Made by a program: the position numbers and the translations under genes. The notes under the pieces are model-generated. The model did no database searches. It worked only from the letters and a program-made list of their open reading frames with translations, and had not been told where the DNA came from. DNA of 64,000 bases from a virus (lineage: Duplodnaviria > Caudoviricetes), in IMG/VR virus record IMGVR_UViG_3300012347_000104, positions 8,513-72,512 of that record; one strand, written 5' to 3'. Shown one piece after another: positions 7,851 through 23,686 of the stretch (the stretch's first letter is position 1; every line of letters starts with the position of its first letter).

Positions 7851-8480
7851 TTACCCTTGGTGTTGTAGCAAGTCTAATACTAAGTGGTAGTGATGTTGTC
7901 TATCTTCTAACCCAATTGTTCCGCCGTTGATTCTCTTTGTCAATGTAACAAAGTCATCACTGTCGCAGTATTGATTTAAGTTGTTATTATCCCAGAACCA
8001 ACCAGCTGAACTTACTGCACCCTGAGGTGTTTCTAGATAAGCTACTGTTTCTTCGATACTGATACCTAAGTCTGCGGCAAACTTTGTGTAGTTAGCACGA
8101 CCGGTTAATTGAATAAGCCCTCTGCCACAGAAACGAAAACCATCACCTGATCCTTCGTCACCATTAGCCATACGATTAGCGTAAACACGATTAGCAATTT
8201 TTTCAGGTTTTCTTTCATACTCTTTTGCTATCCCTTCATTAGGAAAATACTTTTTAAATGTAGTCATTAAACCTTTTGCACCGTAACTCAAATTCTCTTT
8301 CACGAAATTGAAGCCACCTGACTCATGTGCAACTTGTGCTAAAAATCCTGCCACTCTGCGAGGATTGTCGTACATGTCATAGTATTCTGCTACTTCATGT
8401 AATGGTTCTGCATATAATGCTAGAACGCTCTCTTTTGTTTTTGGGCATAAAGCCTTCAATAGTTCTAATGTTACTTTCAT
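7851..8480 (-). CDS. Glycoside hydrolase family 19 lysozyme/chitinase (endolysin or tail lysin)
   Basis: FLAQVAHESGGF..ENL, GDGFRFCGRGLIQLTGRANY, SAGWFW, TKRINGG..GLEDR. Confidence 0.93.
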   Translation of the reverse strand: MKVTLELLKALCPKTKESVLALYAEPLHEVAEYYDMYDNPRRVAGFLAQVAHESGGFNFVKENLSYGAKGLMTTFKKYFPNEGIAKEYERKPEKIANRVYANRMANGDEGSGDGFRFCGRGLIQLTGRANYTKFAADLGISIEETVAYLETPQGAVSSAGWFWDNNNLNQYCDSDDFVTLTKRINGGTIGLEDRQHHYHLVLDLLQHQG

Positions 8481-11174: not shown

Positions 11175-11214
11175 GTTAAATCTACCTTATGTTGTATTTA
11201 TCATAAAGTATGAC

Positions 11215-17311: not shown

Positions 17312-20300
17312 TTACTTGATACCAGCAATCTCACCTGTGTTCATAATACGAACCGGGATGTAGATGAATTCAGCAGCCTTAACTGGCTCGATAGCAACGT
17401 CAATCCATAACTCGTTTCTGTCGATACGAGCAGGTGTGTTGTTAGTTTCATCACATACAACCAAGTAGTCATATAGACCACGTTTAGCAACTAAGTCAAC
17501 GAATAGTGACTGTACAACTGCTGTCAATTGACCACGTGTTAATGCATCGTTTGGTTCGAATACGAACGGACGAGCAGCAACTTGTAGACGTTCACGAATG
17601 TACGCAACTAAACGTGCAACGTTAGTACGGTCCATAGCAGATTGTGTGTCTTGACTATTCTTGTTACCATAGTTCAATAGACCAACACCAGTGAAGAATG
17701 CCAATGGGTTGATTTGATTTGTGTACAATACATCACGAATACCCATTCTGTTCTTAACAGTTTGGAATTCACCTGTAGTGCTGTTAATATAACCAATGTT
17801 TGTAGCATTGTCGATATTACCACGGCGTGTACCGGCAGCAGCTAACCAAGGATAAGCAACTGTATCATTTCTGATGAAAGTGCGCAACATCATGTGTGAT
17901 GCTGGGACAACTGCTGCTGCACCTGTTGTATCACTTGTGATACCGCTTGGGTAGAAGATACCTAAGTATTGGTCACGTGAAACTAAACCGTCTTCACCAG
18001 TACCTGTTGCGCCTGCTGCGTTAGTAGCCCAGTTAGTCAACTGTGTTGCTTGGTCTTCTAAACGCAATGGTGTGTCACCGATAATGTACGCAGTGTTGTT
18101 GCGCTCATTGTTTAGACCAACCATATCAGGTTGCAACTCTGGGTAACCAGGAGTTACGATTAAGTTGAAGAATGAGTCTTCTTCACGGATACTCATGTTA
18201 GTACCGATAGCTGCCTTCAATGATTGAACAACCATGTTACGCTGAGCCTTACGACCCATGTAAGCAGAACCGTTAGCCTTCAAGCCACTAGCTGATACCC
18301 AAGTATATGAGTATGTTGGCATAGAACCATTTGGATACTTTGCACGAGTAAAGTAGTTACGTGTAAACTTCTTAACGTTGTAACCTGAACGGCGTGTGTT
18401 GAACAAAATCATACCTTGTGGGTACAATGTTGCGTCAGGTGCATCTAAGTCTAAGTAGTTGCTAGTAACCAAATCAGCAATAGTTGATAACGGATCATTT
18501 ACTGGATCAACTGAACCAGATGTTCCCCAACGTGCGTCAGCAAACAAGATACCCTTTGAAGTTGTTTGGTCTGTATTGTCGATTGACACCCATTGCGGTA
18601 CTGTATCTAAGATTTCCCAACGTGATAACGCTGGATAATTTTCTAAGTCAGCACTATTCAACCAGATATCACCCGGAACTAAGTCAGAGCCAGATAGCTG
18701 TGTTGTTGGTGCGACTGCGCTTACGATTACGCCGTTAGGATCAGTGTCATTGGAAACACCGAATGCAGGGAAACCAAAGTCATCATAACCTACGTTACAA
18801 TAACCTTTCCATACACCACCTTGGTTAATCATAATGTCAACTTGAGATGGAGTTGAGTAATACCATGATGTACCATTCGCTGGCAATGATGCAGGAGCAC
18901 CTTCATTTGAAGTGTAGCTTAATAGTTCCCAATTTGACAATCCTAGAATAGAAAGATTCTTAGGGATACCAGATGAGAATACTAATCCAGTAATTTCACC
19001 TGCATTTACTGACTGAACTCTCAATACTAAATTATTAGCAGACGTGCCGCCTAATTGAGTGCCCGAGAATGTTAACGTGTCACCAACTGCGAAGTTTGTA
19101 CCACCAGAAACAATACTGAACGTGTAACTAGTTCCTAAATTCACAATGCGAATATTAGCATTTGCGCCAGTATCAGTTGTGTATGTAGCGTTTTGCGCAA
19201 TGACAGGTTCCGTAAGAGCAGGAATTCCATTTATACCAGCAATGAATCCTAATTCTTCCAAAGCACCGTTGCTTTGTCCGGTTACTTCTCGGTCAGACAA
19301 GTATATTTCTCCACCTAATGTGTGAGTCAATACGATTTCACCTGAAGAAGCAACTTCAGCCGTAGTATACGGGATATTCATTGATTGCCAAGCAGTTACG
19401 AAATCTTCAGCGTTACCTGTACAATTAATTGTATATTTAGGTAATTCTGCTGGATTTGAAATATTAGTCAATGAAGCCGAAACAAGAATTGCCTTAGACG
19501 ATGAGAACGAAACGTTTGTGTTAGTGCCTCTTACAACTGTTGCACCTGTTGTTTTTCTCTTATACCAAGATAAACTTGCAATATTCAATGTTCCAGCATA
19601 ATTAGGAGTACCGTAATAAGTACCAATAATAGTTCCTGAAGGAATATTCTTACCGCCTGTGCTGTCTAAAGAGCAAATTGCCTCAAGTGCAGTTGGGAAT
19701 AAGTTTGTAGGTACGCTTGTGTAAGTAGCTAGATTTGAATCATACTTTGAAAACAATACATTCATACCTGATCCAGCAATGCTCGTCTTAATCCAAACAG
19801 ACCCAGTTGGGTGAGGATATTGTTGACTTGCTGACCACAATGGCATGTTTGCGCTAGTACCAATAGATACGTCTGGTGAGTATACTGGTGTAGCAGTTGG
19901 GATACCACCTAATTGCTCTAACGGAGTACCTGTACCATCAGTGAACTGGATATATGTGTTTTGGTGCTTTCCGCAATAGTAAATGTTCAATTTACCTGAA
20001 ATAACGTCAGCAGCAATGTCGCTGTCACCCAAACCATTAATTGAGTTTTTGATGTCATTTAATGTTGAACCAGAGTTAATTGTAACAACGTGAGTAACGC
20101 CTGTAACAGGAATTGTCATCGAGAATGTACCAGGAACTACTGTGCTGCTACTTGATTGTACTGTAGGAATTGATTTCTTCCATTCACGTGATCCGATTTC
20201 GACCCATGTATTTTCAGTATTCTTATAGAAATATGTACCTGCAGTGTAAGGACCATCAACAATGTTGTCTGGGATAATCGCATAAGAACCGATAGATCCA

Positions 20301-20839
20301 ATACTGTCTTTAGGAAAACCATCAACCATCTGTGATGCTTCTGTAACTACGATAGGTGTCTTGTTTGTGAACTTACCTGTAGTAGCATTGAATTCGTAGA
20401 TACCCCATGTTGAGTTAGTTGTGTCTAACCAATATGTACCGTCAGTTGGTTCACCTACTGGACGAGCTAATGTACCAACTAATGAACCTAAGTCAACGTC
20501 AGCACGTAACACATACGCACGATTTGTTACACCTAAAACAGAGTAAGCAGCCATTAGACCGTATTCGTTTAGTTCGTAACCGTGAATTGGTGTACCATTT
20601 GAAGTCTTGTAGAAGAATGGTGAACCGAACAATGTTGTCAAGTCACGTTGGCTTGTCAACAACTGTAATTTGTTAGCATTTGCCGCTGTTGTTGCTGCTG
20701 CAACTCCGGTGCCTGCACCGTTAATTTTATTTTGTGCAGTTGCCACTACAATTAGCGGAACTGATGAGGATGCTCCTGGCAAGTATTGACTTTCATCGAT
20801 GATACTTACTGAGACTCCTGGTGACACTAAATTTGCCAT
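17312..20839 (-). CDS. gp18: Tail sheath protein, enlarged (1175 aa)
   Basis: N-terminal LVSPGVSVSIIDES; C-terminal NQINPL, GNK, DRTNVARLV, FVFEPND, VVCDETNNTPARIDRNELWIDVAIEPVKAAEFIYIP. Confidence 0.95.
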   Translation of the reverse strand: MANLVSPGVSVSIIDESQYLPGASSSVPLIVVATAQNKINGAGTGVAAATTAANANKLQLLTSQRDLTTLFGSPFFYKTSNGTPIHGYELNEYGLMAAYSVLGVTNRAYVLRADVDLGSLVGTLARPVGEPTDGTYWLDTTNSTWGIYEFNATTGKFTNKTPIVVTEASQMVDGFPKDSIGSIGSYAIIPDNIVDGPYTAGTYFYKNTENTWVEIGSREWKKSIPTVQSSSSTVVPGTFSMTIPVTGVTHVVTINSGSTLNDIKNSINGLGDSDIAADVISGKLNIYYCGKHQNTYIQFTDGTGTPLEQLGGIPTATPVYSPDVSIGTSANMPLWSASQQYPHPTGSVWIKTSIAGSGMNVLFSKYDSNLATYTSVPTNLFPTALEAICSLDSTGGKNIPSGTIIGTYYGTPNYAGTLNIASLSWYKRKTTGATVVRGTNTNVSFSSSKAILVSASLTNISNPAELPKYTINCTGNAEDFVTAWQSMNIPYTTAEVASSGEIVLTHTLGGEIYLSDREVTGQSNGALEELGFIAGINGIPALTEPVIAQNATYTTDTGANANIRIVNLGTSYTFSIVSGGTNFAVGDTLTFSGTQLGGTSANNLVLRVQSVNAGEITGLVFSSGIPKNLSILGLSNWELLSYTSNEGAPASLPANGTSWYYSTPSQVDIMINQGGVWKGYCNVGYDDFGFPAFGVSNDTDPNGVIVSAVAPTTQLSGSDLVPGDIWLNSADLENYPALSRWEILDTVPQWVSIDNTDQTTSKGILFADARWGTSGSVDPVNDPLSTIADLVTSNYLDLDAPDATLYPQGMILFNTRRSGYNVKKFTRNYFTRAKYPNGSMPTYSYTWVSASGLKANGSAYMGRKAQRNMVVQSLKAAIGTNMSIREEDSFFNLIVTPGYPELQPDMVGLNNERNNTAYIIGDTPLRLEDQATQLTNWATNAAGATGTGEDGLVSRDQYLGIFYPSGITSDTTGAAAVVPASHMMLRTFIRNDTVAYPWLAAAGTRRGNIDNATNIGYINSTTGEFQTVKNRMGIRDVLYTNQINPLAFFTGVGLLNYGNKNSQDTQSAMDRTNVARLVAYIRERLQVAARPFVFEPNDALTRGQLTAVVQSLFVDLVAKRGLYDYLVVCDETNNTPARIDRNELWIDVAIEPVKAAEFIYIPVRIMNTGEIAGIK

Positions 20840-21974: not shown

Positions 21975-22730
21975 TTAGCCTTGTACCCAAGTCAATGGTT
22001 GACTGTAATCTACATAACGCTTTAAGTCTTCTAATAGTGTAGCTTGCATCTCTTTAGATTCATTCTTTAGTGATGCACCATTCAATGTAGTACCACCGTT
22101 AGGTCCTGCGATACTAGCAAACTTTTCACGTGCTTCGCCTAATGTAGACTTCAACACGCTAAGAGTCCAGTCACCAATCCAAACGCCTGCACCCGGATCT
22201 TGTAATAGCTCTGATTCAGGGCGTTGGGTGTCCGCCCAAATAAGGATCTTCTCACCGCTTGCTTTAACATCTCTAACTAATCGTAGTTGTTTTGTGACAG
22301 GGTTGAATGTGTAAACAATGTAACCACCGAACATACGTGCTGCCAATTCAATGTATCCTGCATACATATCGTATGTTGCTAAACCACCTGAATAGTTATA
22401 GTTAAGCAAATATGTGTTTAAAATTGCTGAGGAGAACGGATCAAATGAACTGCTTGATGGACCGGTCTCTAAACCAATCGTTCTACGGAAAACTTGACGG
22501 ACATTAATAAACTCTTTAGGTAGAGTATAAATTTCTTGGTGTGCCTCTAAGGGCATTAATGTATAAGATTCCACTGTGGCATTTTGAGCCCTTTGACGAT
22601 AAACTTTAATGGCATATTGATATGCTGCTTCATAATGTTCAGGGTCTAACTCAATATCAACCATTCCCTCACCTAATCTAAGACGTAAGTTCTGGAATAA
22701 TTCTTCTTTTAATTCAATAAGGGATGACAT
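21975..22730 (-). CDS. gp13: Neck protein (T4 gp13-like)
   Basis: LRLGEGMVDIEL, GEAREKF..I.GP.GG.TLNG..L. Probable start MSSLIE at 22730 with SD GGAG (track start 22748). Confidence 0.82.
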   Translation of the reverse strand: MSSLIELKEELFQNLRLRLGEGMVDIELDPEHYEAAYQYAIKVYRQRAQNATVESYTLMPLEAHQEIYTLPKEFINVRQVFRRTIGLETGPSSSSFDPFSSAILNTYLLNYNYSGGLATYDMYAGYIELAARMFGGYIVYTFNPVTKQLRLVRDVKASGEKILIWADTQRPESELLQDPGAGVWIGDWTLSVLKSTLGEAREKFASIAGPNGGTTLNGASLKNESKEMQATLLEDLKRYVDYSQPLTWVQG

Positions 22731-22748
22731 ATATTTCTCCGGATACAT

Positions 22749-23248
22749 TATTTATCAGAAAATTCAGTGGGTTATGTCTATGGGTTTTGTGTTAGGTATG
22801 TCTCAGATATTCTTAGGCAATGGTGAGTAGATATAAAATCTACAAACCAAAAACATTCTTGAGGAACTTAGGTGATGATGAATTCAAAAATTACAGTGGA
22901 GGATTGTCTATGTCTCACTAACCCATGAAGGGAATTTGCCGTATTCGCTATTAATGACAGTACATGATTCATCAAGAAGTACTGTCTAGCCCGGGCCCTC
23001 TATCACAATTACTATGACCCGGCAAACTATCAACTATTAAGATATGGGAAACGTTTCTACGCAGAGGGTAGACGTTTAAGCATCAGGTGGTAGTCCCATA
23101 AATATGCGTTGGTCACGCTTCTACCGTCACACCACAATGAGGACGGGATATCGCCGCAGTTTGAGGTCGCGGTTTACCTATAGACCAATAATCTTTTACT
23201 TAACTCGCAATGTTGTGCTAAAAATCACACTACATTGCGAGGATTGTA
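22749..23248 (-). ncRNA. Candidate structured non-coding RNA (unassigned family)
   Basis: 500-nt gap in an otherwise gap-free genome, with at least seven nested or adjacent stems; G-U pairs favour the minus strand. Confidence 0.45.
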
Positions 23249-23686
23249 TTACAAATCGCCTGCTTGACGATTCTCTGAATAATGTGCGTCAAACGAACCA
23301 CCTGGATAGCGTGATTCTAGTTTACGAACGTTTTCATCAATGACTTCGTTAGGGTCTAGTCGAAGTGCCCTGCAGGCATTAATCCAGTACCACATAACGT
23401 CACCGAGTTCACGTTTCATGTGGAAGACTTCATCATCCGACAGACGTTTACCTTGAAAAATGATTTTCTTGGGAACCTCAATGAATTCACCTGCTTCGGC
23501 TGCTAATCCCATACAAGCTGTAATCAACAATGGCACATTCACATCCGGACCGTGTCGTTGTGTCACCTCATCAAAATTACCATCTAGCTCATCTAGACGA
23601 TTCATAAATGTCGTCAAGTCATTACTTGGCTTACTTGTTACAGCCTCTACAAAATCTTTGTACTTGTTTAAATCAATCTTACTCAA
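23249..23686 (-). CDS. mazG: MazG-like nucleotide pyrophosphohydrolase
   Basis: GLAAEAGEFIEVPKK and ELGDVMWY, N..KLESRYP. Confidence 0.88.
   Translation of the reverse strand: MSKIDLNKYKDFVEAVTSKPSNDLTTFMNRLDELDGNFDEVTQRHGPDVNVPLLITACMGLAAEAGEFIEVPKKIIFQGKRLSDDEVFHMKRELGDVMWYWINACRALRLDPNEVIDENVRKLESRYPGGSFDAHYSENRQAGDL

Follow-up and report, generated by a model that had tools for sequence, protein, structure and literature searches.

GOLLD (RF01998) and ROOL (RF03087), large, intricate and pseudoknotted non-coding RNAs of phages and prophages, form RNA-only multimeric cages by cryo-EM (bioRxiv 10.1101/2024.12.08.627333). The RNA described here, which lies between a mazG-like gene and the neck gene of a giant phage, resembles them in its size class, intricacy and pseudoknots, in being accessory and in having been found comparatively in environmental (lake) sequence. 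However, it is shorter (~385 nt versus ~600-800 nt) and belongs to freshwater giant myoviruses, where its position, flanked by mazG and the neck gene, is constant. GOLLD and ROOL often adjoin tRNA genes, whereas the window (the whole stretch of DNA analyzed, 64 kb) contains no tRNA or tmRNA gene by ARAGORN. Neither of the two marks of membership in these families, homology to the model and adjacency to tRNA genes, was found.

Group I introns (RF00028) of T4-like phages are also comparable, being 250-500 nt long, optional among relatives, and built of a pseudoknotted core with GNRA-capped peripheral hairpins. In contrast, the present RNA is intergenic, has neither exons nor a homing endonuclease ORF, finds no match to the covariance model, and has a helix order that could not be mapped by eye onto P1-P9. 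Removal of a group I intron joins exons, whereas this element lies between a stop codon and the promoter of an intergenic region that is complete in non-carriers. Some words in the RNA resemble group I core elements, a likeness that no model search supported. The phi29 pRNA (RF00044) is likewise a structured RNA encoded by a phage, and the RNA studied here has its gene near head-tail connector, neck or terminase genes, a position suggestive of a possible part in assembly; it is, however, more than twice as large as pRNA and does not match its model. Moreover, pRNA is essential for packaging, whereas the present RNA is optional in close relatives and seemingly belongs to an early or middle transcription unit.

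To place the RNA among known families, we compared the window with Rfam 15 (4227 models, among them those for group I and II introns, RNase P, tmRNA, 6S, GOLLD, ROOL, OLE, pRNA and riboswitches). No match was found over the whole window at gathering thresholds. With E values up to 10, positions 22600-23400 gave two weak and unrelated matches (a microRNA and an enterobacterial sRNA), far below threshold, and no match recurred among ten diverse homologs, with limits of E up to 10 or 5 in these relaxed scans. The original prediction had seen no hallmarks of tRNA, tmRNA, RNase P or group I/II introns. A full-text literature search found no description of a mazG-neck RNA. A catalog spanning IMG/VR lists 10,006 candidate structured RNAs (PMC10690425); its data source and type of evidence are those used here, and parts of this RNA may be among its unnamed candidates, but its text names no jumbo-phage, mazG or neck-associated motif. 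The RNA thus matches no family cataloged in Rfam 15 and is a new large pseudoknotted RNA of giant phages. The comparative signal is unusually clean, and a defined genomic address together with natural presence and absence variants makes the RNA directly testable. Large, intricate RNAs of unknown function are uncommon, and all those characterized so far have proved to do something unexpected.

The gap between mazG and the neck gene

The window comes from a 72.5-kb IMG/VR fragment of an uncultured giant myovirus, estimated to be 21% complete. Its neck protein shares 36-42% identity with those of Rak2/121Q-like jumbo phages and Xanthomonas phage XaC1. All genes around the gap are on the minus strand, in the order five-ORF operon (from ~25563, the last ORF being MazG-like), gap, neck gene, dNMP kinase and tail sheath. 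The sheath gene (17312-20839, minus strand) is unusually long, with 1175 aa, and sheath families match its C-terminal part only. The features of the junction are as follows.

23249..23686, minus strand: MazG-like nucleotide pyrophosphohydrolase (Pfam PF03819, E 5e-9; phrog_229, E 3.5e-45)
23204..23241, minus strand: 14-bp hairpin just after the mazG stop codon (inverted repeat, 93% complementary)
22807..23191, minus strand: conserved core of the structured RNA, ~385 nt (extent of BLAST homology, >60 contigs; alignments A2 and A3; pair counts)
21975..22730, minus strand: neck / head-tail adaptor Ad2 gene (phrog_211, E 3e-27)

For the neck gene, the ATG at 22730 is a likelier start than the first ATG (22748), because a GGAG lies 7 nt upstream of the former, the latter abuts a promoter-like octamer, and related proteins align from residue 7-10. 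The gap therefore spans 22731-23248, slightly more than the 22749-23248 first given. It is indeed non-coding, with stop codons in all six frames, and is the largest true non-coding stretch in the window. Such a stretch beside a structural module could be a DNA-level element, namely a replication origin or a packaging site, or else a decayed protein gene. Against the former, no direct repeats or iterons were found in the gap region, and its GC content equals the window average (0.40 in both). Against the latter, the homologous RNA loci have no ORF in common: their longest ORFs vary in place and strand, one locus (L013) lacks any that reach 40 aa, all frames are interrupted in every homolog, and the indels are not multiples of three. 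Neither the open nor the shared frame of a protein gene or pseudogene was thus seen.

The hairpin behind mazG had been counted as part of the structured region. Its stem (23204-13 / 23232-41) exists, but it is not a member of the conserved element, for it is kept, with compensatory changes, in the closest relatives only, whereas other relatives show either no hairpin there or a GC-rich one that is unrelated. The stem probably serves mazG as a 3' hairpin or weak terminator, or else as a processing site.

Homologs, fold and strand of the RNA

A search with the neck protein yielded 80 IMG/VR loci, and only five of these (L003-L006 and L013) show DNA similarity in the gap, at 72-92% identity. We then used an invariant 19-mer from the first alignment as a search pattern; viral contigs yielded 66 matching stretches and metagenome contigs 41, and a second pattern that excludes the 19-mer gave 27 further viral loci. 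Homologs, which the original prediction had expected, are thus abundant; because most of them were gathered by exact-match patterns, the conservation of those patterns is overstated. No match was found among isolated phages in GenBank (50,697 genomes). A scan of 185,579 prokaryote genomes with the 19-mer gave three matches, as many as chance would produce; beyond the 19-mer they have nothing in common with the RNA, and they were rejected as cellular or prophage copies. The RNA is present in one copy per genome in all five further records examined, including a complete genome of 364 kb. A weak BLAST match at ~8334-8368 of the window, considered as a second copy, is a chance likeness inside a coding ORF.

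The structure was built by hand, its pairs were counted over alignment A3 (62 distinct cores from viral and metagenome contigs, aligned with MAFFT), and it was then revised after a scan for covarying column pairs. Core position n is 23195 minus the window coordinate. The final model has 86 pairs in 18 helices, including four pseudoknots, and its elements are listed below from the 5' end; each helix is given by its two strands, and "both-side changes" are pairs in which both partners are changed.

23183-23188 / 23109-23114, minus strand: helix H1, both-side changes in 5 of 6 pairs
23116-23118 / 23106-23108, minus strand: helix Hb, both-side changes in 3 of 3 pairs, 73.6% paired (MAFFT misalignment)
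23109..23188, minus strand: 5' domain, with the pseudoknot of H1 and Hb, the loop of Hb being the 3' strand of H1
23176-23179 / 23164-23167, minus strand: helix S1, both-side changes in 3 of 4 pairs
23169-23172 / 23154-23157, minus strand: helix S2, both-side changes in 4 of 4 pairs
S1 with S2, minus strand: pseudoknot near the 5' end, enclosed in the 5' domain
23142-23146 / 23124-23128, minus strand: hairpin H3 in the 5' domain, 99.4% paired, both-side changes in 2 of 5 pairs
23094-23100 / 23043-23049, minus strand: helix H4, 99.8% paired, both-side changes in 5 of 7 pairs, up to 29 cells per pair
23073-23076 / 23050-23053, minus strand: helix H5, 99.2% paired
23068-23071 / 23057-23060, minus strand: helix H5a, inside H4
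23016-23022 / 22991-22997, minus strand: helix H8, 99.8% paired, both-side changes in 6 of 7 pairs, the best supported helix
22987-22990 / 22947-22950, minus strand: helix H9o, 100% paired
22979-22986 / 22956-22963, minus strand: helix H9, both-side changes in 8 of 8 pairs
22935-22938 / 22885-22888, minus strand: helix H7n, both-side changes in 3 of 4 pairs, 23 cells at one pair
22930-22932 / 22922-22924, minus strand: hairpin H10, inside H7n
22916-22920 / 22894-22898, minus strand: helix H11, inside H7n, both-side changes in 4 of 5 pairs
22968-22974 (loop of H9) / 22876-22882, minus strand: pseudoknot PK3, 7 pairs, 99.8% paired, 5 of them with both-side changes (24 and 10 cells)
23003-23007 (loop of H8) / 22821-22826, minus strand: pseudoknot PK4, 5 pairs, 99.7% paired, two of them with 20 and 10 both-side cells
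22838-22843 / 22827-22832, minus strand: hairpin H12, just 5' of 22821-22826

Positions 23043..23100 (minus strand) form a three-way junction in which H4 encloses a small variable hairpin, H5 and H5a. The 18-nt loop of H8 is conserved. The 17-nt loop of H11 (22899-22915) is near-invariant, and its variants, which came from the loop-free search pattern, fit a 3-bp mini-hairpin. H12 is only 66.9% paired in the alignment, its 5' strand being out of register (MAFFT), and it forms in 61 of the 62 sequences when these are folded alone. In some relatives, extra hairpins with GUAA or UUCG loops occur at two positions; hairpins with GNRA or UUCG caps are typical of peripheral elements in large folded RNAs. 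The segment 22821-22826 can pair with either of two stretches, each of which covaries with it and excludes the other: the loop of H8 (23003-23007) and 22846-22848 (an extension of H12). This dual pairing may reflect a conformational switch or a folding intermediate.

Among the 5250 cells of the model (86 pairs in 62 sequences), 93.0% are canonical, as against 36-43% when the partners are slid by 1-3 columns; because the structure was partly derived from the same MAFFT-aligned sequences, the proportion of paired cells is inflated, whereas the count of both-side changes is not. Both sides have changed in 60 of the 86 pairs (660 cells), and none of the 500 shuffles equals the observed alignment in any of five measures. 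By contrast, single-sequence folding is no better than in shuffled sequences (z = -1.4 on the minus and -1.9 on the plus strand for the 500-nt gap; -0.9 for the core), so that this check, unlike that of covariation, went against the original prediction. Structure beyond chance is thus evident from the comparison of sequences and not from folding a single one. The null result is outweighed because single-sequence folding is a weak test for a pseudoknotted RNA and 60 pairs have changed on both sides. On this comparative evidence, 22807-23191 (minus strand) is a conserved RNA gene of ~385 nt, predicted to fold on itself into at least 18 helices, arranged in four domains that four pseudoknots hold together, and the substitution patterns indicate that its structure is under strong purifying selection. 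The proposal of a large structured phage non-coding RNA is thus upheld by homologs, covariation and the silence of Rfam, with a fold more complex than had been described.

Most of the stems proposed at the outset recur in the model with support from covariation. TTGGTC/GACCAA (23109-14 / 23183-88) is H1, CCGTC/GACGG (23124-28 / 23142-46) is H3, TATGGGA/TCCCATA (23043-49 / 23094-100) is H4 with the inner stems H5 and H5a, and the stem 22956-63 / 22979-86 is H9. The CCGC/GCGG hairpin corresponds to S2 and is actually one half of a pseudoknot; the CCGGG/CCCGG stem, offered as an alternative pairing, turned out to be H8. The exception is TTTGCCG/CGGCAAA (22935-41 / 23020-26; core 170-173 / 256-259), which we discarded since it shows no both-side change and 87% pairing; in the model, 22885-22888 is the partner of its 3' half, and H8 takes up part of its 5' half. 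Two first-draft stems of our own were also dropped once the pairs had been counted: one at core 312-315 / 337-340, and a possible long-range closing stem at core 153-157 / 380-384, with only 4 both-side cells and 89% pairing.

The supported helices also tell the strand. They contain 209 G-U cells versus 49 A-C cells (45 to 1 in H8 and 13 to 0 in H3), and the GNRA (GUAA) and UUCG loops appear on the gene strand only. Because G-U outnumbers A-C, the RNA is read from the minus strand, that of the flanking genes, in line with the earlier remark that the G-U pairs work on this strand only. The same counts bear on a replication origin or packaging site, which the original prediction had named as an alternative: only on one strand do the compensatory changes preserve Watson-Crick and G-U pairing, so that selection is strand-specific, tolerating G-U but not its mirror A-C. 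Moreover, most close relatives do without the element, although they too have to replicate and package their DNA. Although the position of the gap would suit such a site, we regard a DNA-level element, like a decayed protein gene, as very improbable.

Distribution of the RNA and variability of its site

Among 76 relatives from the neck-protein search whose flank reaches mazG, the length of the mazG-neck spacer is bimodal: most spacers are short (6-66 nt, mostly 25-66 nt), and the others measure 200-1018 nt. Of the 69 scorable members of this unbiased set, 5 carry the RNA. On a tree of neck proteins (FastTree; 110 distinct sequences with 57 carriers, a sample enriched for carriers), presence and absence require at least 17 changes, compared with ~36 when the labels are shuffled. 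Presence is therefore clustered by descent, yet the RNA has been gained or lost many times. The RNA is inserted behind the stop codon of mazG and ahead of a conserved promoter block.

The long spacers elsewhere hold unrelated inserts (L007, L015, L018, L024, L025, L029, L030, L032, L035, L055 and L069), many with ORFs of 117-257 aa, several of which match no family; the insert at L018:3362-3934 encodes a 191-aa 2OG-Fe(II) oxygenase. The mazG-neck junction is a hot spot for accessory genes. Some carriers of the RNA have one or two extra small ORFs (~75-108 aa) between mazG and the RNA, for example L096:2651-3155, and the final ORF stops precisely at the beginning of the RNA. In ~11 relatives the RNA starts directly after the stop codon of an upstream small ORF, leaving no room for a hairpin or a promoter. 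From this distribution we infer that the RNA is an optional, single-copy accessory cassette at a variable spot of the genome. Uncultured freshwater giant phages would thus carry ornate RNAs of their own as optional cargo, beside protein 'morons'.

Presence and absence at one precise site among close relatives is also what a mobile or selfish catalytic RNA would produce, whether a group I-like intron without an ORF or a large ribozyme of another kind, and a ribozyme that processes the polycistronic transcript can be envisaged as well. The size of the RNA, its pseudoknotted core and its GNRA-capped peripheral hairpins are typical of large ribozymes, and there is the word-level likeness to group I core elements, which no model search supported. 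However, unrelated protein-coding inserts occupy the same site, so that the polymorphism belongs to the site; the insertion is outside genes and hence leaves no exons to join; the helix order, compared by eye, could not be mapped onto P1-P9; and neither the window nor the ten homologs match any group I, group II or ribozyme model of Rfam 15 at E values up to 10. A catalytic origin of this kind therefore seems improbable to us.

A diverged copy of the RNA occurs in a second phage lineage (L095, L101, L189, L198, L201, L212 and L216). It lies ~3.5 kb upstream of the large terminase gene, on the same strand, and these copies have two further conserved 3' hairpins, ~100 nt downstream of the core. 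In several of these loci the upstream ORF ends at the 5' end of the RNA. In L212 the RNA follows a strand switch, and in L216 there is a good -10 box.

Late promoter, expression and possible role

Between the RNA and the neck gene lies an octamer, GATAAATA, which differs by one base from the T4 late promoter, TATAAATA. It occurs 14 times in the window, compared with 3.4 expected. The gene strand carries 13 of these copies, most of them 16-30 nt ahead of the start codons of structural genes.

22749-22756, minus strand: late-promoter-like octamer GATAAATA, inside the inverted repeat 22735..22762
221, 11195, 14178, 17267, 30471, 30852, 32657, 34640, 57885, 59683, 61067 and 61874: further sites of the octamer
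37922, plus strand: further site of the octamer

No copy is found on the minus strand between 22757 and 30470. From motif enrichment and position, the octamer is very probably the late promoter of this phage group. A scan for sigma-70 type promoters gave as many sites as in shuffled sequences, and we therefore assign no such promoter to the RNA.

The 3' arm of the inverted repeat 22735-22762 covers the GGAG of the neck gene (22737-22740). In relatives without the RNA, the spacer consists of a short stretch and the same arrangement, with the octamer in the loop of an inverted repeat and GGAG in its 3' arm, and the arms show compensatory changes among relatives (loci in the range L008-L081). In T4 gene e, the ribosome-binding site is hidden in a hairpin of early read-through transcripts, whereas late transcripts start inside the hairpin. 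The neck junction recalls this arrangement and, by analogy, may silence early read-through of the neck gene. A covarying hairpin at the ribosome-binding site makes sense only if transcripts of the mazG operon read across the junction, so that such read-through would be expected.

We infer the ends, timing and expression of the RNA from this layout. The RNA would form the tail of an early or middle transcript from the minus-strand operon whose final gene is mazG, since the transcripts of the operon appear to cross the junction, and would be reached by read-through of the hairpin behind mazG or, in some relatives, start directly behind the stop codon of another small ORF. Late neck mRNA would lack the RNA because its probable promoter, of the T4 late type, is located downstream of the RNA and ahead of the neck gene. 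The ~11 relatives in which the RNA abuts an ORF stop codon agree with expression as an operon tail. In L212 and L216, by contrast, the RNA needs a promoter of its own, and expression as the tail of an operon is therefore not universal.

On balance we lean towards a trans-acting accessory RNA cassette that is transcribed as the tail of the mazG operon. Such an RNA would work free-standing; it might bind a protein of the phage or the host, as a scaffold or a decoy, or assemble from RNA alone in the manner of GOLLD and ROOL. A role in trans is judged the likeliest because the neighbors of the RNA vary, the neck gene is self-controlled in phages without the RNA, and the size and knotting of the RNA exceed those of leaders. 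Two observations count against it: in both lineages, morphogenesis genes follow closely downstream of the RNA on its own strand, and the exclusive pairings of 22821-22826 fit a regulatory switch.

Both observations would instead favor an element acting in cis on its transcript, either a leader or switch that sets read-through into the neck gene and other late genes, or a 3' structure shielding the operon mRNA from 3' exonucleases; that the RNA abuts the stop codons of upstream ORFs speaks for it too. However, the neck gene's own late promoter and ribosome-binding-site hairpin suffice in many relatives that lack the RNA, and the upstream gene varies (mazG, small ORFs, or an unrelated ORF in the second lineage). 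The octamer separates the RNA from the neck start, although read-through transcripts would still hold both. No terminator-like stem with a run of U is seen at the 3' end of the RNA, and 385 nt with four pseudoknots far exceed the needs of known leaders and 3' stabilizers. Because the neck gene controls itself and the neighbors vary, we consider action in cis a serious rival but an unlikely one, and favor a role in trans.

A more speculative version, which we hold to be rather doubtful, is that the RNA represents a new class of large functional RNA in giant phages, equipped with a switch at 22821-22826 and acting as a ribozyme or as a quaternary assembly of RNA alone. Phages would trade it as an accessory cassette, for example to counter a defence of the host or to commandeer one of its RNA-binding machines.

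As a by-product, the analysis yields a candidate late promoter motif for this phage group and an apparent T4-like hiding of a ribosome-binding site in early read-through transcripts. Similar inverted repeats also flank the octamers at 11195, 17267 and 32657.
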